NCBI RefSeq assembly: GCF_003334355.1
Contig: NZ_QOWP01000016.1
Length of the DNA: 64,000 bases
Origin: Escherichia coli
GTDB lineage: Bacteria > Pseudomonadota > Gammaproteobacteria > Enterobacterales > Enterobacteriaceae
Direction: 5' to 3' (one strand)
Of this stretch, positions 1 through 10,905 are shown piece by piece. Position 1 is the stretch's first letter. Each line of letters begins with the position of its first letter. The notes under the pieces were generated by a model that saw nothing but the letters and a program-made list of their open reading frames with translations, ran no database searches and was not told the origin of the DNA. The translations under genes and the position numbers were made by a program.

Positions 1-250
1 AAGGCATTTCTATCGACAGAGTGAATTATTAATTCCCGATGTACTGGCGAATGTTAATTTTTCCCAGGCTGATGAGGTCATAGCTGATTTACGAGACAAA
101 CTTCATCAATTGTGTGAAATGTTATTTAATCAATCTGTAGCGCCCTATGCACATCATCCTAAATTAATAAGCACATTAGCGCTCGCCCGCGCCACGCTAT
201 ACAAACATTTACGGGAGTTAAAACCGCAAGGAGGGCCATCAAATGGCTGA
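1..250 (+). CDS. casA: Cse1/CasA (type I-E Cascade large subunit), C-terminal fragment truncated by window start
   Basis: Frame from base 2 is open with no stops to TGA at 248-250, ending ...KPQGGPSNG; stop overlaps casB start; position immediately upstream of casB as in the E. coli I-E operon. Confidence 0.75.
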   Translation, partial: RHFYRQSELLIPDVLANVNFSQADEVIADLRDKLHQLCEMLFNQSVAPYAHHPKLISTLALARATLYKHLRELKPQGGPSNG

Positions 251-725
251 TGAAATTGATGCAATGGCTTTATATCGAGCCTGGCAACAACTGGATAACG
301 GAGCATGTGCGCAAATTAGACGTGTTTCAGAACCTGATGAATTACGCGATATCCCTGCGTTTTATAGGCTGGTGCAACCTTTTGGTTGGGAAAACCCACG
401 TCACCAGCAGGCTCTTTTACGCATGGTGTTTTGCCTGAGCGCAGGAAAGAATGTCATCCGACATCAGGACAAAAAACCGGAGCAAACAACAGGTATCTCG
501 TTGGGAAGAGCTTTAGCCAATAGTGGAAGAATTAACGAGCGCCGTATCTTTCAATTAATTCGGGCTGACAGAACAGCCGATATGGTCCAGTTACGTCGAT
601 TGCTTGCTCACGCCGAACCCGTACTTGACTGGCCATTAATGGCCAGGATGTTGACCTGGTGGGGAAAGCGCGAACGCCAGCAACTTCTGGAAGATTTTGT
701 ATTGACCACAAACAAAAATGCGTAA
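243..725 (+). CDS. casB: Cse2/CasB, Cascade small subunit (160 aa)
   Basis: ORF 243..725, 160 aa, translation matches my recollection of E. coli CasB; operon context. Confidence 0.93.
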   Translation: MADEIDAMALYRAWQQLDNGACAQIRRVSEPDELRDIPAFYRLVQPFGWENPRHQQALLRMVFCLSAGKNVIRHQDKKPEQTTGISLGRALANSGRINERRIFQLIRADRTADMVQLRRLLAHAEPVLDWPLMARMLTWWGKRERQQLLEDFVLTTNKNA

Positions 726-737
726 GGAAACCTTTCT

Positions 738-1829
738 ATGTCTAACTTTATCAATATTCATGTTCTGATCTCTCACAGCCCTTCATGTCTGAACCGCGAC
801 GATATGAACATGCAGAAAGACGCTATTTTCGGCGGGAAAAGACGAGTAAGAATTTCAAGTCAAAGCCTTAAACGTGCGATGCGTAAAAGTGATTATTACG
901 CACAAAATATTGGTGAATCCAGTCTCAGAACAATTCATCTTGCACAATTACGTGATGTTCTTCGGCAAAAACTTAGTGAACGTTTTGACCAAAAAATCAT
1001 CGATAAGACATTAGCGCTGCTCTCCGGTAAATCAGTTGATGAAGCCGAAAAGATTTCTGCCGATGCGGTTACTCCCTGGGTTGTGGGGGAAATAGCCTGG
1101 TTCTGTGAGCAGGTTGCAAAAGCAGAGGCTGATAATCTGGATGATAAAAAGCTGCTCAAAGTTCTTAAGGAAGATATTGCCGCCATACGTGTGAATTTAC
1201 AGCAGGGTGTTGATATTGCGCTTAGTGGAAGAATGGCAACCAGCGGCATGATGAGTGAGTTGGGAAAAGTTGATGGTGCAATGTCTATTGCGCACGCGAT
1301 CACTACCCATCAGGTTGATTCTGATATTGACTGGTTCACCGCCGTAGATGATTTACAGGAACAAGGTTCTGCACATCTGGGAACACAGGAATTTTCATCG
1401 GGTGTTTTTTATCGTTATGCCAATATTAACCTCGCTCAACTTCAGGAAAATTTAGGCGGTGCCTCCAGGGAGCAGGCTCTGGAAATTGCAACCCATGTTG
1501 TTCATATGCTGGCAACAGAGGTCCCTGGAGCAAAACAGCGTACTTATGCCGCTTTTAACCCTGCGGATATGGTAATGGTTAATTTCTCCGATATGCCACT
1601 TTCTATGGCAAATGCTTTTGAAAAAGCGGTGAAAGCGAACGATGGCTTTTTGCAACCGTCTTTACAGGCGTTTAATCAATATTGGGATCGCGTTGCCAAT
1701 GGATATGGTCTGAACGGAGCCGCTGCGCAATTCAGCTTGTCTGATGTAGACCCTATTACTGGCCAGGTACAGCAAATGCCTACTTTAGAACAGTTAAAGT
1801 CCTGGGTTCGTAATAATGGCGAGGCGTGA
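738..1829 (+). CDS. casC: Cas7e/CasC, Cascade backbone subunit (363 aa)
   Basis: ORF 738..1829, 363 aa; operon position between casB and casD. Confidence 0.94.
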
Positions 1830-1831
1830 AC

Positions 1832-2506
1832 ATGAGATCTTATTTGATCTTGCGACTTGCTGGGCCAATGCAAGCCTGGGGGCAGCCGACCTTTGAAGGA
1901 ACGCGACCTACCGGAAGATTTCCGACCCGAAGCGGGTTATTAGGGCTACTCGGGGCTTGTCTTGGGATCCAACGTGATGATACTTCTTCATTACAGGCGT
2001 TATCAGAGAGTGTGCAATTTGCAGTGCGCTGCGATGAACTCATTCTTGACGATCGTCGTGTGTCTGTAACGGGGTTGCGTGATTACCATACAGTCCTTGG
2101 AGCGCGAGAAGATTACCGTGGTTTGAAAAGTCATGAAACGATTCAAACATGGCGCGAATATTTATGTGATGCCTCCTTTACCGTCGCTCTCTGGTTAACA
2201 CCACAGGCAACGATGGTTATGTCAGAACTTGAAAAAGCAGTATTAAAGCCTCGGTATACACCGTATCTGGGGCGGAGGAGTTGTCCGCTAACACAACCGC
2301 TTTTTCTCGGGACATGTCAGGCATCGGATCCTCAGAAGGTGCTATTAAATTATGAGCCCGTTGGCGGCGATATTTATAGTGAGGAATCAGTTGACGGGCA
2401 TCATTTAAAATTTACGGTGCGCGACGAACCGATGATCACCTTGCCTCGACAATTTGCTTCCCGAGAATGGTATGTGATTAAAGGAGGTATGGATGTATCT
2501 CAGTAA
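1832..2506 (+). CDS. casD: Cas5e/CasD (224 aa)
   Basis: ORF track begins at GTG 1826; ATG at 1832 gives MRSYLILRLAG..., the N-terminus I recall for CasD; casC stop at 1827-1829. Confidence 0.9.
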   Translation: MRSYLILRLAGPMQAWGQPTFEGTRPTGRFPTRSGLLGLLGACLGIQRDDTSSLQALSESVQFAVRCDELILDDRRVSVTGLRDYHTVLGAREDYRGLKSHETIQTWREYLCDASFTVALWLTPQATMVMSELEKAVLKPRYTPYLGRRSCPLTQPLFLGTCQASDPQKVLLNYEPVGGDIYSEESVDGHHLKFTVRDEPMITLPRQFASREWYVIKGGMDVSQ

Positions 2507-3092
2507 AGTCATCATTGCCAGGGCCTGGAGCAGGGATCTTTACCAACTTCACCAGGGATTATGGCATTTATTTCCAAACAGACCGGATGCTGCTCGTGAT
2601 TTTCTTTTTCATGTTGAGAAGCGAAACACACCAGAAGGCTGTCATGTTTTATTGCAGTCAGCGCAAATGCCTGTTTCAACTGCCGTTGCGACAGTCATTA
2701 AAACTAAACAGGTTGAATTTCAACTTCAGGTTGGTGTTCCACTCTATTTTCGGCTTCGGGCAAATCCGATAAAAACTATTCTCGACAATCAAAAACGCCT
2801 GGACAGTAAAGGGAATATAAAACGCTGTCGGGTTCCGTTAATAAAAGAAGCAGAACAAATCGCGTGGTTGCAGCGTAAATTGGGCAATGCCGCGCGCGTT
2901 GAAGATGTGCATCCCATATCGGAACGACCACAGTATTTTTCTGGTGATGGTAAAAGTGGAAAGATCCAAACGGTTTGCTTTGAAGGGGTGATCACCATCA
3001 ACGACGCGCCAGCGTTAATAGATCTTGTACAGCAAGGTATTGGGCCAGCCAAATCGATGGGATGTGGCTTGCTATCCCTGGCTCCACTGTGA
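2493..3092 (+). CDS. casE: Cas6e/CasE, pre-crRNA endoribonuclease (199 aa)
   Basis: ORF 2493..3092, 199 aa, overlaps casD end by 14 nt. Confidence 0.94.
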   Translation: MYLSKVIIARAWSRDLYQLHQGLWHLFPNRPDAARDFLFHVEKRNTPEGCHVLLQSAQMPVSTAVATVIKTKQVEFQLQVGVPLYFRLRANPIKTILDNQKRLDSKGNIKRCRVPLIKEAEQIAWLQRKLGNAARVEDVHPISERPQYFSGDGKSGKIQTVCFEGVITINDAPALIDLVQQGIGPAKSMGCGLLSLAPL

Positions 3093-3107
3093 TTAAGGTG
3101 TAATAAA

Positions 3108-4311
<1,204 letters not shown>

Positions 4312-4416
4312 AAACAAAGAATTAGCTGATCTTTAATAATAAGGAAATGTTACATTAAGGTTGGTGGGTTGTTTTTATGGGAAAAAATGCTTTAAGAACA
4401 AATGTATACTTTTAGA
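4312..4416 (+). promoter_or_regulatory. CRISPR leader (AT-rich, between cas2 stop and first repeat)
   Basis: About 105 bp AT-rich sequence directly abutting the first repeat on the cas2 side; type I-E leaders are known to carry the array promoter and integration signals. Confidence 0.7.
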
Positions 4417-4567
4417 GAGTTCCCCGCGTCAGCGGGGATAAACCGCCAAAGCAAAAGAAGTCGTCGATAATATGCGTGAGTTCCCCGCGTCAGCGGGGAT
4501 AAACCGGGCGCACTGGATGCGATGATGGATATCACTTAGAATTCCCCGCCCCTGCGGTAGAACACCC
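4417..4567 (+). CRISPR. Type I-E CRISPR array: 3 repeats (29 bp) and 2 spacers (32 bp); third repeat degenerate
   Basis: Repeat GAGTTCCCCGCGTCAGCGGGGATAAACCG at 4417-4445 and 4478-4506; spacers at 4446-4477 and 4507-4538; degenerate terminal repeat GAATTCCCCGCCCCTGCGGTAGAACACCC at 4539-4567. Confidence 0.92.
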
Positions 4568-4587
4568 AGCTCCCATTTTCAAACCCA

Positions 4588-5625
4588 TCAAGACGCCTTC
4601 GCCAACTCCTTCACCAGAGGTAGCATTATCCGCATAACGTCACGGCAGCGACGTTCTATTCTTCCAGGAAGTGCCTTATCAATATGCTGTTGATTATCCA
4701 GTCTTACGTCATGCCAGCTATTTCCCGCAGGGAATGCGGCTGTTTTTGCGCGTTGCTGATAACCATCCTTATTCCCAAGATTCCAGTTAGTCGCTTCCAC
4801 CGAAAGTACAGCAATGCCCGCTTTGTCGAATATTTCTGCGTCATTACAACACCCAGTGCCTTTCGGATAATTTTTATTCAAACCCGGATTGGTCGTTGCG
4901 GCTATTCCGTGACTGCGTGCAATTGCCAGCGCCCTGTCGCGCGTTAATTTCCTTACTGCTTCAGGGGTTTTTACACCGCTGTTGAAATACAATTTATCGC
5001 CAACAATTAAGTTATCGAGATTAATCACCAGCAGCGTATTTTTCTTTTCGGTGTCACTCATCCGCTTGAGTAAATTCTCAGCGCCTAATTTCCCTTCCTC
5101 TTCGCCGCTGGTCGCCACAAATCGAATACCATACTCGGTAGGCGTATTTTTCAGGCGTTCTGCCAATTCCAGCATGACACCTAAACCTGCGGCGTTATCA
5201 TCCATTCCTTGTAACGTCAGCCCGCCGAGATTGGCATCGGCGTCAGCATCGCTCAGCGGGGCGTAAGTATCCAGATGCGCCATAATGATGATCTGCTGCG
5301 GCGCTTTGCCTTCATGAGCGGCAATCACCGTACTTCCCGTCACGTTATGCCAGCTCTTACGATTATCGCGGGCGGTATAAATATACCGACTATTAAATGT
5401 CCGAATATCACTGCGATAACCCATTTGCTGAAACTGTTGGCGAATATAATCGGCAGATAACATTTCTGCAGGAGTTCCGGTCATGCGTCCCGGAAAGAAA
5501 GTAGCAATATGTCGTGCCTGAGTATTAGCAAAATCGCCAGGTTTAGGTGACGAGGCGTGTACGGGGAGAATAAAGCATACGCCGAGCGCCAGGGCAGCGG
5601 TACGGTGGCGCAATGCGGAAAACAT
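4588..5625 (-). CDS. iap: Alkaline phosphatase isozyme conversion aminopeptidase (345 aa)
   Basis: ORF 345 aa with N-terminal signal peptide; position between CRISPR array and cysD as in E. coli. Confidence 0.9.
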   Translation of the reverse strand: MFSALRHRTAALALGVCFILPVHASSPKPGDFANTQARHIATFFPGRMTGTPAEMLSADYIRQQFQQMGYRSDIRTFNSRYIYTARDNRKSWHNVTGSTVIAAHEGKAPQQIIIMAHLDTYAPLSDADADANLGGLTLQGMDDNAAGLGVMLELAERLKNTPTEYGIRFVATSGEEEGKLGAENLLKRMSDTEKKNTLLVINLDNLIVGDKLYFNSGVKTPEAVRKLTRDRALAIARSHGIAATTNPGLNKNYPKGTGCCNDAEIFDKAGIAVLSVEATNWNLGNKDGYQQRAKTAAFPAGNSWHDVRLDNQQHIDKALPGRIERRCRDVMRIMLPLVKELAKAS

Positions 5626-5876
5626 AGTGAGTCCTTAAATACCATGCAAATTTTTTTACCGCCATAGTATGAAACTGCCGCTGCGCTAAAACAATTTCAA
5701 ATCTTCCTAAACGCCCGAAATCCGGTGCCTTAAGCACTTTTTGATATTAGCTTTGCCAAATCGTTATTCCGTTAAGGAACTACTCATTCTAATTGGTAAT
5801 TTCATTCGTTCTCTTACGCTCCCTATAGTCGAAACATCTGATGGCAAGAAAATAGCGGTATTGCAAAGGAACGGTT

Positions 5877-6785
5877 ATGGATCAAATACGACTTACTCAC
5901 CTGCGGCAACTGGAGGCGGAAAGCATCCACATTATTCGCGAGGTGGCGGCAGAATTCTCAAATCCGGTGATGCTCTACTCTATCGGTAAAGATTCCAGCG
6001 TCATGCTGCATCTGGCGCGCAAGGCGTTTTATCCAGGTACGCTGCCTTTCCCGTTGCTGCATGTCGATACCGGCTGGAAATTCCGCGAGATGTATGAGTT
6101 CCGCGATCGTACTGCTAAAGCCTACGGCTGCGAACTGCTGGTGCATAAAAACCCGGAAGGCGTGGCGATGGGGATTAATCCATTCGTGCACGGCAGCGCG
6201 AAACATACCGATATTATGAAAACTGAAGGCCTAAAACAGGCGCTGAACAAATACGGTTTTGATGCCGCCTTCGGTGGTGCGCGCCGTGACGAAGAGAAAT
6301 CCCGCGCTAAAGAGCGAATTTACTCTTTCCGTGACCGCTTCCATCGCTGGGATCCGAAAAATCAGCGCCCGGAGCTGTGGCACAACTACAACGGGCAAAT
6401 TAACAAAGGCGAAAGCATCCGCGTCTTCCCGCTCTCTAACTGGACCGAGCAGGATATCTGGCAATACATCTGGCTGGAAAATATCGACATTGTTCCGCTA
6501 TATCTCGCTGCGGAACGTCCGGTTCTGGAACGCGACGGTATGTTGATGATGATTGATGACAACCGTATCGACCTGCAACCGGGCGAAGTGATTAAAAAAC
6601 GGATGGTGCGTTTCCGTACGCTGGGCTGCTGGCCGCTGACCGGTGCGGTGGAGTCAAATGCACAAACACTGCCGGAAATCATCGAAGAGATGCTGGTTTC
6701 CACCACCAGTGAACGTCAGGGCCGCGTGATTGACCGCGACCAGGCGGGGTCTATGGAGCTGAAAAAACGTCAGGGGTATTTTTAA
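5877..6785 (+). CDS. cysD: Sulfate adenylyltransferase subunit 2 (302 aa)
   Basis: ORF 302 aa; cysDNC operon order. Confidence 0.95.
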
Positions 6786-6786
6786 G

Positions 6787-8214
6787 ATGAACACCGCACT
6801 TGCACAACAAATCGCCAATGAAGGCGGCGTCGAAGCCTGGATGATTGCGCAACAACATAAAAGCCTGCTGCGTTTTCTGACCTGTGGTAGCGTCGATGAC
6901 GGCAAAAGTACTCTGATTGGTCGTCTGCTGCACGATACCCGCCAAATCTACGAAGATCAGCTCTCATCGCTGCATAACGACAGTAAGCGTCACGGCACCC
7001 AGGGCGAAAAGCTGGATCTGGCTCTGCTGGTGGACGGCCTGCAAGCTGAGCGCGAACAGGGCATCACCATTGACGTGGCCTACCGCTATTTCTCTACCGA
7101 GAAGCGTAAATTTATTATCGCCGACACCCCAGGGCACGAGCAGTACACCCGCAATATGGCGACTGGCGCATCGACATGTGAACTGGCGATCTTACTGATC
7201 GATGCCCGTAAAGGCGTGCTCGATCAAACCCGTCGTCACAGTTTTATCTCCACACTGTTGGGGATCAAACATCTGGTCGTGGCGATCAACAAAATGGATC
7301 TGGTGGATTACAGTGAAGAGACGTTCACCCGTATTCGTGAAGATTATTTGACCTTTGCCGGGCAGCTGCCGGGTAATCTGGATATCCGCTTTGTGCCGCT
7401 CTCTGCACTGGAAGGCGACAACGTGGCATCGCAAAGTGAAAGTATGCCGTGGTACAGCGGTCCGACACTGCTCGAAGTGCTGGAAACCGTGGAGATCCAG
7501 CGAGTGGTGGATGCTCAGCCAATGCGCTTCCCGGTGCAGTACGTTAATCGCCCGAATCTCGATTTTCGTGGTTACGCCGGAACGCTGGCATCCGGTCGCG
7601 TGGAAGTCGGGCAACGTGTCAAAGTGCTGCCCTCTGGTGTGGAATCAAACGTCGCGCGGATCGTGACTTTTGATGGTGATCGCGAAGAAGCCTTTGCCGG
7701 AGAAGCGATCACCCTGGTGCTGACGGATGAGATCGACATCAGCCGTGGCGATCTGCTGCTGGCGGCAGACGAAGCGTTACCGGCGGTGCAGAGCGCGTCG
7801 GTGGATGTGGTATGGATGGCGGAACAGCCGCTTTCTCCAGGGCAGAGTTACGACATCAAAATTGCCGGTAAGAAGACGCGCGCGCGTGTTGATGGCATTC
7901 GCTATCAGGTTGATATTAATAACCTTACCCAGCGTGAAGTTGAAAACCTGCCACTGAATGGGATCGGCCTCGTGGATCTCACTTTTGACGAGCCGCTGGT
8001 GTTAGATCGTTATCAACAAAATCCGGTGACGGGTGGGCTGATTTTTATCGATCGCCTGAGCAATGTGACCGTGGGTGCCGGTATGGTGCACGAGCCAGTT
8101 AGCCAGGCAACTGCTGCGCCATCTGAATTCAGTGCATTCGAACTGGAATTGAATGCTCTGGTTCGTCGCCACTTTCCGCACTGGGGCGCGCGCGATTTGC
8201 TGGGGGATAAATAA
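6787..8214 (+). CDS. cysN: Sulfate adenylyltransferase subunit 1, GTPase (475 aa)
   Basis: ORF 475 aa with GTP-binding motifs ([18 protein letters not shown]). Confidence 0.95.
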
Positions 8215-8819
8215 TGGCGCTGCATGACGAAAACGTCGTCTGGCATAGCCATCCGGTCACTGTGCAACAACGCGAGCTACACCACGGTCATCGTGGTGTA
8301 GTGCTGTGGTTTACCGGCCTCTCCGGGTCCGGTAAATCAACGGTCGCCGGGGCGCTGGAGGAGGCGTTACATAAACTCGGCGTCAGTACGTATCTGCTGG
8401 ATGGCGACAATGTTCGCCACGGATTATGCAGCGATCTCGGTTTTAGCGATGCCGATCGTAAAGAGAATATCCGTCGCGTCGGTGAAGTGGCGAATTTGAT
8501 GGTTGAAGCCGGACTGGTGGTGCTGACCGCATTTATCTCGCCACACCGCGCCGAACGCCAGATGGTTCGCGAACGCGTAGGAGAAGGGCGCTTTATCGAA
8601 GTGTTTGTCGATACGCCGCTGGCGATTTGCGAAGCCCGCGATCCCAAAGGCTTATATAAGAAAGCGCGTGCCGGTGAACTGCGCAACTTTACGGGAATAG
8701 ATTCCGTTTACGAAGCGCCTGAATCGGCAGAAATTCATCTCAATGGTGAACAATTAGTAACAAATTTGGTACAGCAATTATTAGATCTGTTGAGACAGAA
8801 CGATATTATCAGATCCTGA
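8214..8819 (+). CDS. cysC: Adenylylsulfate (APS) kinase (201 aa)
   Basis: ORF 201 aa with P-loop GLSGSGKST; start overlaps cysN stop. Confidence 0.95.
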
Positions 8820-8868
8820 GACACCACCGGGTTTCCATGCCCGGTTCGTCAAAGTAACAGGATCAAAT

Positions 8869-9192
8869 ATGCGTAATAGCCATAACATTACACTAACAAA
8901 TAACGACAGCCTTACTGAGGATGAAGAAACCACATGGTCACTGCCTGGTGCCGTGGTCGGTTTTATCTCCTGGTTATTTGCGCTGGCGATGCCGATGTTG
9001 ATTTATGGCTCTAACACGCTGTTCTTCTTTATCTACACCTGGCCTTTCTTTCTGGCGCTGATGCCCGTCGCGGTAGTGGTGGGGATTGCGCTGCATTCAT
9101 TGATGGACGGAAAGCTACGCTACAGTATTGTTTTCACCCTGGTGACAGTAGGCATTATGTTTGGCGCACTGTTTATGTGGCTACTGGGCTAA
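8869..9192 (+). CDS. ygbE: Small inner-membrane protein of unknown function (107 aa)
   Basis: ORF 107 aa with hydrophobic segments; position between cysC and ftsB. Confidence 0.8.
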   Translation: MRNSHNITLTNNDSLTEDEETTWSLPGAVVGFISWLFALAMPMLIYGSNTLFFFIYTWPFFLALMPVAVVVGIALHSLMDGKLRYSIVFTLVTVGIMFGALFMWLLG

Positions 9193-9385
9193 TTTGTACT
9201 TTCCCGTCTCCTCTGTTCATAATTCAAACCGTAACTAATAATGAGATTATGTTCTGCACGCCCTGGGTATACGTAACAATGGACAAATGTGGTACATTTG
9301 CCCGCGTTGTCGCGGTATCCCCAACAGAGGATGTAGAGTCGTCTTCGGATGCATGGGATGATGATGCCGTTTTTCAGGGGGCAGG

Positions 9386-9697
9386 ATGGGTAAACTAACG
9401 CTGCTGTTGCTGGCTATTCTGGTCTGGCTACAGTATTCGCTGTGGTTCGGTAAGAACGGTATACATGACTATACCCGCGTCAATGATGATGTGGCGGCAC
9501 AGCAAGCTACAAACGCGAAACTTAAAGCGCGAAACGATCAACTTTTTGCCGAAATTGACGATCTCAATGGCGGCCAGGAGGCGCTCGAAGAGCGTGCGCG
9601 TAATGAACTCAGCATGACCAGGCCGGGCGAAACTTTTTATCGTCTGGTGCCTGACGCGTCGAAGCGCGCACAGTCTGCGGGGCAAAACAATCGATAA
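9386..9697 (+). CDS. ftsB: Cell division protein FtsB (103 aa)
   Basis: ORF 103 aa, N-terminal TM segment followed by coiled-coil-like sequence; upstream of ispD. Confidence 0.9.
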
Positions 9698-9715
9698 ATC
9701 AGCCCGGGAATTAAC

Positions 9716-10426
9716 ATGGCAACCACTCATTTGGATGTTTGCGCCGTGGTTCCGGCGGCCGGATTTGGCCGTCGAATGCAAACGGAATGTCCTAAGCAAT
9801 ATCTCTCAATCGGTAATCAAACCATTCTTGAACACTCGGTGCATGCGCTGCTGGCGCATCCCCGGGTGAAACGTGTCGTCATTGCCATAAGTCCTGGCGA
9901 TAGCCGTTTTGCACAACTTTCTCTGGCGAATCATCCGCAAATCACCGTTGTAGATGGCGGTGATGAGCGTGCCGATTCCGTGCTGGCAGGTCTGAAAGCC
10001 GCTGGCGACGCGCAGTGGGTATTGGTGCATGACGCCGCTCGTCCTTGTTTGCATCAGGATGACCTCGCGCGATTGTTGGCGTTGAGCGAAACCAGCCGCA
10101 CGGGGGGGATCCTCGCCGCACCAGTGCGCGATACTATGAAACGTGCCGAACCGGGCAAAAATGCCATTGCTCATACCGTTGATCGCAACGGCTTATGGCA
10201 CGCGCTGACGCCGCAATTTTTCCCTCGTGAGCTGTTACATGACTGTCTGACGCGCGCTCTAAATGAAGGCGCGACTATTACCGACGAAGCCTCGGCGCTG
10301 GAATATTGCGGATTCCATCCTCAGTTGGTCGAAGGCCGTGCGGATAACATTAAAGTCACGCGCCCGGAAGATTTGGCACTGGCCGAGTTTTACCTCACCC
10401 GAACCATCCATCAGGAGAATACATAA
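9716..10426 (+). CDS. ispD: 2-C-methyl-D-erythritol 4-phosphate cytidylyltransferase (236 aa)
   Basis: ORF 236 aa; ispDF pair. Confidence 0.94.
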
Positions 10427-10905
10427 TGCGAATTGGACACGGTTTTGACGTACATGCCTTTGGCGGTGAAGGCCCAATTATCATTGGTGGCGTACGCATT
10501 CCTTACGAAAAAGGATTGCTGGCGCATTCTGATGGCGACGTGGCGCTCCATGCGTTGACCGATGCATTGCTTGGCGCGGCGGCGCTGGGGGATATCGGCA
10601 AGCTGTTCCCGGATACCGATCCGGCATTTAAAGGTGCCGATAGCCGCGAGCTGCTACGCGAAGCCTGGCGTCGTATTCAGGCGAAGGGTTATACCCTTGG
10701 CAACGTCGATGTCACTATCATCGCTCAGGCACCGAAGATGTTGCCGCACATTCCACAAATGCGCGTGTTTATTGCCGAAGATCTCGGCTGCCATATGGAT
10801 GATGTTAACGTGAAAGCCACTACTACGGAAAAACTGGGATTTACCGGACGTGGGGAAGGGATTGCCTGTGAAGCGGTGGCGCTACTCATTAAGGCAACAA
10901 AATGA
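10426..10905 (+). CDS. ispF: 2-C-methyl-D-erythritol 2,4-cyclodiphosphate synthase (159 aa)
   Basis: ORF 159 aa, start overlaps ispD stop. Confidence 0.94.

Follow-up and report, generated by a model that had tools for sequence, protein, structure and literature searches.

Between the sulfate-activation genes cysDNC and the division gene ftsB of Escherichia coli lies a short gene, ygbE, whose product the literature still terms DUF3561 of unknown function. It is among the remaining E. coli y-genes that have a strong gain-of-function phenotype, a 100,000-fold drop in the plating of phage T4, and no mechanism. The locus raises two questions, namely with which of its neighbors ygbE is expressed and what the encoded protein might do in the cell. 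We examined both in a stretch of 64,000 nucleotides of E. coli DNA (assembly GCF_003334355.1, contig NZ_QOWP01000016.1), which is referred to below in its entirety as the window. A sequence-only reading of the same DNA had placed a small membrane protein here and, from its adjacency to ftsB, had hinted at a role in the envelope or in division. The explanation that we favor, with somewhat less than even confidence, is that YgbE is a three-helix, lineage-specific membrane modulator that would be made from the cysDNC message, be gated by cysC and act through intramembrane contacts.

The ygbE Gene and Its Alleles

The feature under study is the following:
8869..9192, + strand: ygbE coding sequence, 107 aa, DUF3561 family (HMM matches, hydropathy, AlphaFold2, dN/dS)

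The ORF begins with ATG, comprises 107 codons and lies between cysC (8214–8819) and ftsB (9386–9697), the latter being followed by ispD, ispF, and truD. Its translation matched Pfam PF12084 (DUF3561) with E = 1.8e-53, residues 1–107 aligning to model positions 1–107, and scored 159.7 bits against the equivalog NCBIfam NF008001 (cut-off 114). Many E. coli chromosomes carry an annotated ygbE (“DUF3561 family protein”) with the same DNA sequence as the window ORF (100% identity), all 5426 complete E. coli genomes gave a match, and in 80/80 Enterobacteriaceae loci the start codon is ATG, with protein lengths of 106–109 aa. A comparison of the window with the ST131 (phylogroup B2) allele yielded 23.5 synonymous and 7.5 non-synonymous differences; the resulting dN/dS of 0.08 indicated that ygbE is under purifying selection. 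The ORF is ygbE, a real gene far beyond a chance ORF. The sequence-only reading was right about the name and extent of the gene, its place between cysC and ftsB and the lack of an assigned function: gene and family are already catalogued, and function is still without assignment. That reading had also counted a lack of expression against its proposal, and here the record speaks for the gene, as several transcriptome studies document ygbE expression, with transcript changes reported after an acid shift, in long-term stationary phase, in Yersinia grown in plasma, and on exposure to ethanol and vanillin. Compared with the known YgbE/DUF3561 family, the window gene shows a full-length match over the curated cut-offs, the same neighbors cysC and ftsB and no difference; it represents the non-B2 allele type of that family.

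Identity to the window ygbE is bimodal across E. coli, with 3860 genomes at 99% or more and 1003 at 90–95%. The two allele types diverge most in the 5′ half of ygbE, and dS is 0.39 vs. 0.06–0.19 in the neighboring genes (window 8869–9192 compared with positions 6001–6324 of the ST131 locus, L001). The B2 allele is 90.3% and the E. albertii gene 89.7% identical to the window ygbE, the corresponding values for cysN being 96.7% vs. 91.5%. This dimorphism agrees with the published ranking of ygbE as the second most B2-differentiated core gene, so that the basic observation was already known (PMC4182557).

Several reports bear on whether the gene can be lost. ygbE is disrupted in the Salmonella U288 lineage, transposon insertions in it had no effect on colonization of the pig colon, and combining ydgH and ygbE mutations brought no compound fitness defect over either single mutant. 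In E. coli SC422 (NZ_LR778143.1, L092), a lambdoid prophage of 43.6 kb splits the gene, and a tyrosine integrase and an excisionase lie beside the ygbE 5′ half. The two halves are as follows:
L092 4329–4523 and 48180–48356: ygbE pseudogene halves, overlapping by ~48 nt

The prophage inside the gene means that ygbE serves as a phage attachment site in SC422 and is dispensable there. Across the complete E. coli genomes there were 13 more ygbE match places than genomes, at most 2 per genome, which allows for up to 13 genomes with a split or second copy; SC422 is the one in which the split was examined.

Elsewhere in the window, a type I-E CRISPR repeat (GAGTTCCCCGCGTCAGCGGGGATAAACCG) occurs twice, at 4417–4445 and 4478–4506, 61 nt apart and upstream of iap, constituting a minimal array. 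Upstream of ~4600 no alignment of the window with the ST131 locus was obtained, the latter having a hok/gef gene there, and Tandem Repeats Finder returned nothing for window positions 1–6000.

Distribution of the YgbE Family

A HMMER search of 1.84 billion cluster representatives identified 90 YgbE-family clusters at E ≤ 0.001, many of them fragments. With one genome taken per species, 280 of 100,044 contained relatives, and the 80 best matches all came from Enterobacteriaceae. A structure search of AFDB50 retrieved family members from Serratia, Yersinia, Ewingella, Rouxiella, Edwardsiella, Dickeya, Lonsdalea, Rosenbergiella, Sodalis, and others, and neither this search nor the profile searches gave a significant relative outside the family by sequence or by fold. 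No true phage or plasmid in the collections searched carried ygbE; all matches there were mislabelled chromosomes. The “phage” and “plasmid” records in question, e.g., AGRM01000002.1 and NZ_OL790696.1, are chromosomes or chromosome fragments of 0.57–5.4 Mb. The YgbE family is confined to Enterobacterales and is best explained as an invention within that order. Narrow conservation had been named in the sequence-only reading as a point that would refute it, and conservation is indeed restricted to this one order.

Topology, Fold, and Conserved Residues of YgbE

Kyte–Doolittle windows revealed three hydrophobic segments at approximately residues 25–47, 51–79, and 85–107, and modeling with AlphaFold2 from 15 diverse members of the family placed helices at 24–46, 49–78, and 83–106 (mean pLDDT 82.6). 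Of the two or three helices expected from the sequence-only reading, topology prediction by both routes settles on three. The predicted map displayed the following features:
Residues 1–24: N-terminal tail, variable and acidic
Residues ~25–46: predicted TM1, followed by a short YGSN turn
Residues ~49–78: predicted TM2, bearing the family motif YTWPFFLALxP, followed by a G-K-L-R loop
Residues ~83–106: predicted TM3

The protein thereby has the layout of its family, i.e., ~105–120 aa, three TM helices and a YTWPFFLALxP core. Conserved positions (G31, G47, T57, W58, P59, F61, L62, A63, L64, P66, G72, and F102) span the turn after helix 1 (YGxN) and nearly all of helix 2, the conserved part of the protein, which is rich in aromatic residues and proline. 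The family alignment contained no conserved charged residue within the membrane helices, which makes a channel or transporter less likely and favors a surface used in packing or contact. Beyond the first codons, basic residues occur only in the loop that joins helices 2 and 3 (K82 and R84), and by the positive-inside rule this suggests a topology with the N-terminus in and the C-terminus out. YgbE is, on these predictions, an inner-membrane protein with three TM helices, and it is best explained as one of low abundance.

Searches of Pfam, NCBIfam, PDB, and PADLOC found no signature of an enzyme, a transporter or a defense system in YgbE. The PDB profile search gave only ATP synthase c at E = 0.12, and PHROGs gave one weak match on the low-complexity tail (E = 0.0095); both were disregarded. 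An anti-phage defense protein was considered and rejected, given that the PADLOC models matched in 0 families and that the published T4 resistance reflects loss of the OmpC receptor. Several AFDB and PLSDB records name family members “Putative cytochrome oxidase subunit.” CyoD, subunit IV of cytochrome bo3 oxidase, resembles YgbE in its size (109 aa) and its three TM helices and shares no homology with it: hhalign gave a probability of 0.6%, YgbE had no match to Pfam COX4_pro, and CyoD was not among the fold matches. The label was rejected for want of any sequence or profile similarity to CyoD.

Gene Neighborhood and the ftsB Side

The order cysN-cysC-ygbE-ftsB-ispD-ispF was found in 80/80 Enterobacteriaceae loci, and it was also retained in 7/9 distant loci in which YgbE is only 30–40% identical. 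Two of the distant loci are informative. In L083, the most divergent, cysC is kept upstream of ygbE while lgt-thyA lies downstream and ftsB is gone; in L088 there is no cysC upstream and ftsB-ispDF is kept downstream. Since these two loci break opposite links, synteny alone cannot choose between the neighbors of ygbE. The spacers differ: that between cysC and ygbE has a median of ~57 nt in the 80 loci (~50 nt in the window), and that between ygbE and ftsB is long and variable, with a median of ~178 nt and a range of 82–296. The ftsB leader contains conserved promoter-like elements ~30–50 nt upstream of the ATG that are kept across the order, including L088, in the sequence GTGGAGTC, then TGGGATGAT, then CAGGGGG before the ATG. 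In the window, these and one further element are located as follows:
9287–9299: ATGTGGTACATTT, conserved only within Enterobacteriaceae
9333–9340: ftsB leader element GTAGAGTC, conserved across the whole order
9354–9362: ftsB leader element TGGGATGAT, resembling an extended −10, conserved across the whole order
9375–9381: ftsB Shine–Dalgarno sequence CAGGGGG, conserved across the whole order

An 11-codon uORF at 9358–9393 overlapping the ftsB start was considered and rejected, as distant loci do not retain the ATG run. In the part of the pdeL/yahA overexpression sheet of the published RNA-seq data considered here, ftsB mRNA was near-unchanged (+0.23 log2). With a conserved promoter-like leader of its own, ftsB seems independent of ygbE for its expression.

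These results bear on the suggestion of a division role. That YgbE is a divisome-associated protein acting with FtsB draws on its being a membrane protein and on ygbE being the gene just before ftsB, in the same orientation, in 80/80 Enterobacteriaceae and 8/9 distant loci. We find this hardly credible in view of the following: (i) the YgbE family occurs in one order only, whereas FtsB is widespread, so that no co-distribution with FtsB, FtsL or FtsQ across bacteria exists; (ii) the ftsB leader and the long, variable spacer speak for separate expression; (iii) L083 has ygbE without ftsB; (iv) ygbE is dispensable; and (v) the papers retrieved describe no division phenotype of ygbE. The ftsB-ispDF genes are far more widespread than the YgbE family. 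The hint of the sequence-only reading therefore divides: the envelope part is upheld by published overexpression data only, and the division part, which had been drawn from adjacency, falls with the spacer, the leader and the narrow distribution of the family. Overall, the sequence context appears to tie ygbE to cysDNC more than to ftsB.

The cysC-ygbE Junction

The junction contains the following elements:
8748..8786, + strand: invariant block within cysC, GAACAATTAGTAACAAAT ... TTATTAGAT, whose synonymous sites are invariant in 80 loci
8800..8818, + strand: putative 5′ arm of an outer stem, made up of the last 6–7 cysC codons (GAC GAT ATT ATC AGA TCC TG), which can pair with the ygbE initiation region
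8826..8845, + strand: intercistronic GC-rich hairpin, ACCGGGU/loop/GCCCGGU, starting 7 nt past the cysC stop and without a U-tract
8857..8862, + strand: ygbE Shine–Dalgarno (SD) sequence ACAGGA, the AGGA of which ends 7 nt before the ATG
8858..8874, + strand: putative 3′ arm of the outer stem, comprising the SD segment CAGGAUC (8858–8864), to which the window adds two letters of the start codon AUG, A and U (8869–8870)

The good SD that had been pointed out earlier is indeed present, and ACAGGAT is kept at this position in most of the 80 Enterobacteriaceae loci. cysC and ygbE are on the same strand in 80/80 loci, and a promoter and terminator consensus scan of 8500–9800 found none on the + strand near ygbE, the counts being no higher than in shuffles. 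By strand, short spacer and the lack of a promoter or intrinsic terminator in that scan, ygbE looks like a fourth cysDNC cistron, and in a Salmonella microarray study “ygbE-cysC-cysN-cysD” is given as a single operon whose genes responded together (PMC2225428). In the part of the published RNA-seq table considered here, the StringTie baseMean of cysC is ~5, which makes that table uninformative for the junction. Rfam gave no match in 8000–10500 at a permissive threshold.

The intercistronic hairpin varies in sequence among genera while its pairing is kept. RNAalifold showed both-side changes in all 6 pairs, 92% of the cells are paired, and the 25 compensatory cells exceed the 7.9 ± 3.1 obtained in column shuffles, a value reached in 0/500. 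Junction folds in 81 loci had a median z of −3.6. In the window, the 71-nt junction element folds at −23.5 kcal/mol (z = −3.7) and persists in both the MFE and the centroid structures of the 191-nt context.

The outer stem would enclose this hairpin by pairing the end of cysC with the start of ygbE. GAUCCUG at 8812–8818, which includes the U and G of the cysC stop UGA, is complementary to CAGGAUC at 8858–8864, and in the window the stem extends through pairing of 8800–8807 with 8866–8874, which would occupy the A and U of the ygbE AUG. Between 84 and 87% of the cells in the outer stem are paired vs. 20–47% in slid registers. Among the last 150 codons of cysC in 80 genomes, those with zero third-position entropy all lie within the last 24. 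Synonymous-site entropy is 0 at codons −7, −6, −4, −3, and −2 from the end, and one invariant group, with AGA, a rare codon for arginine, among its members, coincides exactly with the 5′ arm (GAC GAT ATT ATC AGA TCC TGA). Within Enterobacteriaceae, 0/10 outer-stem pairs showed both-side changes, so the complementarity could stem from separate constraints on each arm. In 70/85 loci, which are not independent of one another, the ygbE SD became more accessible once the 5′ arm was shuffled; the effect is absent in the window, where masking the cysC end in silico left the SD unfreed (0.25 to 0.14). In the distant loci, no consistent pairing of the cysC end with the SD was found, the pairing being different or not obvious. 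Taken together, co-transcription with cysDNC and coupling to cysC translation make up the best-supported model of ygbE expression, and they are offered here as a model.

The block at 8748–8786 (AACAATTRGTAACAAAT...TTATTAGA) is still present in loci where YgbE identity is only 30–40%. It contains no sigma-70 consensus and no Rfam family; as a sigma-70 promoter it is doubtful, the best fit found by eye, GTAACA-16-TATTAG, being poor. The block could be a candidate regulatory element for ygbE, either an internal promoter or an operator, and such an element would fit the reports that place ygbE in the OmpR acid regulon and among stress-induced genes. These observations bear on a different account, namely that ygbE is an independent stress gene driven by an OmpR- and/or RpoS-dependent promoter in the 3′ end of cysC, that its product modulates one particular sensor kinase, e.g., EnvZ, PhoQ or BasS, and that its position behind cysDNC is merely historical. 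ygbE has been reported to be OmpR-dependent in acid, among the acid-stress genes common to Salmonella and E. coli, and to be raised after an acid shift and in long-term stationary phase. The invariant block offers a place for the promoter or operator, and L088 shows that ygbE can stand alone. On the other side are the poor fit of the block to −35/−10 hexamers and the absence of a sigma-70 consensus on the + strand in 8500–9800. We regard this account as possible, though on balance unlikely. Some of the same evidence counts against the cysDNC-message model that we prefer: L088, where ygbE has no cysC upstream, implies that the gene can be expressed by itself, and the acid and stationary-phase induction, together with the effect of ~3 kb genomic fragments described below, points to a promoter nearer than PcysD.

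Effects of Excess YgbE

Mutalik et al. (2020) found ygbE to be the top multicopy suppressor of phage T4 infection (PMC7553319). On overexpression, the T4 efficiency of plating was 7e-6, ompC fell by 5.7 log2 (~50-fold), flagellar genes went down and arnBCADT went up, with the mechanism left open; low-copy Dub-seq genomic fragments of ~3 kb carrying ygbE also conferred T4 resistance (PMC7553319). In an independent ASKA selection, ygbE was recovered 13 times among 25 sequenced colonies, in which eight proteins were identified, and the ygbE ASKA cells were described as mucoid (PMC10475562). Loss of OmpC together with LPS modification explains the T4 resistance of the overexpressers.

To survey the regulons involved, we drew on the induced genes in the part of S7 Table, sheet “ygbE_ASKA vs wt,” considered here (PMC7553319), in which the His-tagged ygbE itself is raised by 10.2 log2, or ~1000-fold. 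The genes that went up comprised (i) the BasSR group arnBCADT, ais, eptA, pmrR, basRS, and ybjG; (ii) ygiVW and qseBC; (iii) the Rcs-controlled genes ymgDGI, osmB, bdm, ivy, rcsA, and yjbEF, with wca at +2 to +2.6; (iv) the PhoPQ genes mgrB, mgtA, mgtL, mgrR, yneM, rstAB, slyB, and phoP; (v) the Cpx/sigma-32 genes cpxP, spy, degP, htpX, ibpAB, dnaK, and clpB; and (vi) asr and cadA. As seen in this part of the table, ygbE overexpression perturbs the envelope broadly and engages PhoPQ, BasSR, and Rcs strongly. The fall of ompC, a classic OmpR target, and the rise of the PhoPQ and BasSR regulons would suit a modulator of EnvZ, PhoQ or BasS, as the account of an independent stress gene requires. 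However, many regulons respond together, beyond what any single kinase controls, and ompF and dtpA are not among the induced genes of the part of the sheet considered.

A more skeptical interpretation is that the published phenotypes reflect generic toxicity of an inner membrane flooded by a hydrophobic tagged protein, and reveal no specific function. The extent of overexpression and the accompanying rise of the heat-shock and Cpx genes listed above would be expected from it, and the dispensability of the gene (the null effect in the pig colon, the U288 and SC422 disruptions, and the ydgH ygbE double mutant) points the same way. Set against it are the strong purifying selection, the presence of ygbE in all 5426 E. 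coli genomes and across an order, the dominance of the BasSR, PhoPQ, and Rcs regulons, which is not the usual signature of membrane overload, and the T4 resistance conferred by the low-copy fragments. We consider it improbable that toxicity accounts for the phenotypes as a whole; nevertheless, at ~1000-fold overexpression of a tagged protein, they cannot define the native role of YgbE.

The same table contains a sulfur response. Within the part considered (PMC7553319), the CysB sulfur-starvation regulon was up about 6- to 22-fold on ygbE overexpression, and cysPUWA 11–22-fold; the log2 values were +4.5 for cysU, +3.9 for cysJ, +3.7 for cysA, +3.6 for both cysW and cysD, +3.5 for cysP, +2.9 for cysI, +2.8 for cysN, +2.7 for yeeE, and +2.4 for cysH. 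The standard errors of the cys genes are large (0.3–0.8). yeeD rose by only +1.5 log2, which was not significant, and in the pdeL/yahA overexpression control cysD stood at +0.74 log2, likewise not significant (PMC7553319). The induction of the CysB regulon is not discussed in the text of PMC7553319, and it is notable in that ygbE directly follows cysDNC. Given this position, a sulfur response to excess YgbE is suggestive, but it may be a growth artefact, the data being those of the part of the table considered.

If the response is genuine, it hints at a natural partner of YgbE in sulfur uptake or assimilation. Taken further, sulfate assimilation in Enterobacterales would have a dedicated membrane protein in YgbE, whose synthesis would keep pace with that of CysC through an RNA switch, ribosomes that terminate on cysC freeing the ygbE start, and which would act on sulfur uptake or on the handling of sulfur intermediates; this would explain the de-repression of the CysB regulon by excess YgbE, and would make the envelope stress and the T4 resistance secondary consequences. 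We give this stronger version little weight. A further variant, in which YgbE is a small oligomeric transporter or exporter of a sulfur intermediate such as sulfite or sulfate, and excess protein drains reduced sulfur and thereby de-represses CysB, appears very improbable to us. Besides the position of ygbE behind cysDNC and the CysB response, its support comes from the best non-family fold match, a fragment of CrcB, a member of a family of small channels with dual topology. That match is not significant, though (E = 1.9), the conserved residues are Gly, Pro, Phe, Leu, Ala, Trp, and one Thr rather than charged or polar residues that could line a pore, and no similarity to a transporter family was found in Pfam, NCBIfam or PDB.

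Discussion

The evidence presented here is most consistent with the membrane modulator model, which can be set out as follows. ygbE would be expressed mainly as the fourth, distal cistron of the sulfate-activation operon cysDNC, whose transcription would pass through the conserved intercistronic hairpin, lacking as it does a U-tract, into ygbE. On that message, the ygbE ribosome-binding site and, in E. coli, also the start codon would be masked by pairing with the last codons of cysC, and ribosomes finishing cysC would open the ygbE start, i.e., translational coupling by unmasking. The protein so made would exert its effect through contacts inside the membrane with a second protein, one of the envelope or of transport, as a small membrane modulator comparable to MgrB, SafA, MzrA, and PmrR and neither a catalyst nor a channel. 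L083, which retains ygbE behind cysC without ftsB, was counted in favor of the operon link.

The analysis narrows the search for a function: the division idea can be dropped, the gene belongs to one order, and the putative expression signals point to cysDNC. Should coupling to cysC and the sulfur link prove true, they would add a membrane component to a pathway deemed complete and connect sulfur status to the remodelling of outer-membrane porins and LPS; if they are false, ygbE is an ordinary lineage-specific small membrane protein.

Two groups of known systems invite comparison. With regard to the protein, YgbE has no sequence or fold relationship to the MgrB-type modulators; it has three helices in 107 aa, whereas they have one helix in 30–130 aa, and its induction by the systems that it perturbs is known only as a listing in the OmpR regulon. 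Like MgrB, SafA, MzrA, PmrR, AcrZ, and MgtS, on the other hand, it is small, hydrophobic, devoid of a catalytic motif and restricted to a lineage; as with the MgrB-type modulators, its excess alters the output of the PhoPQ, BasSR, and OmpR regulons, and its conserved residues lie within the membrane.

With regard to expression, the phage MS2 coat-replicase pair is a case of a distal cistron unmasked by upstream translation, and malEFG is an operon with intercistronic stem-loops. The cysC-ygbE spacer of ~50 nt is longer than in typical coupled pairs, which overlap or abut, and the putative outer stem here is without covariation support. Like them, the ygbE initiation region can pair with the end of the upstream ORF, cysC, and, as in operons with stabilizer hairpins, a stable, covarying hairpin without a U-tract lies between the two genes.
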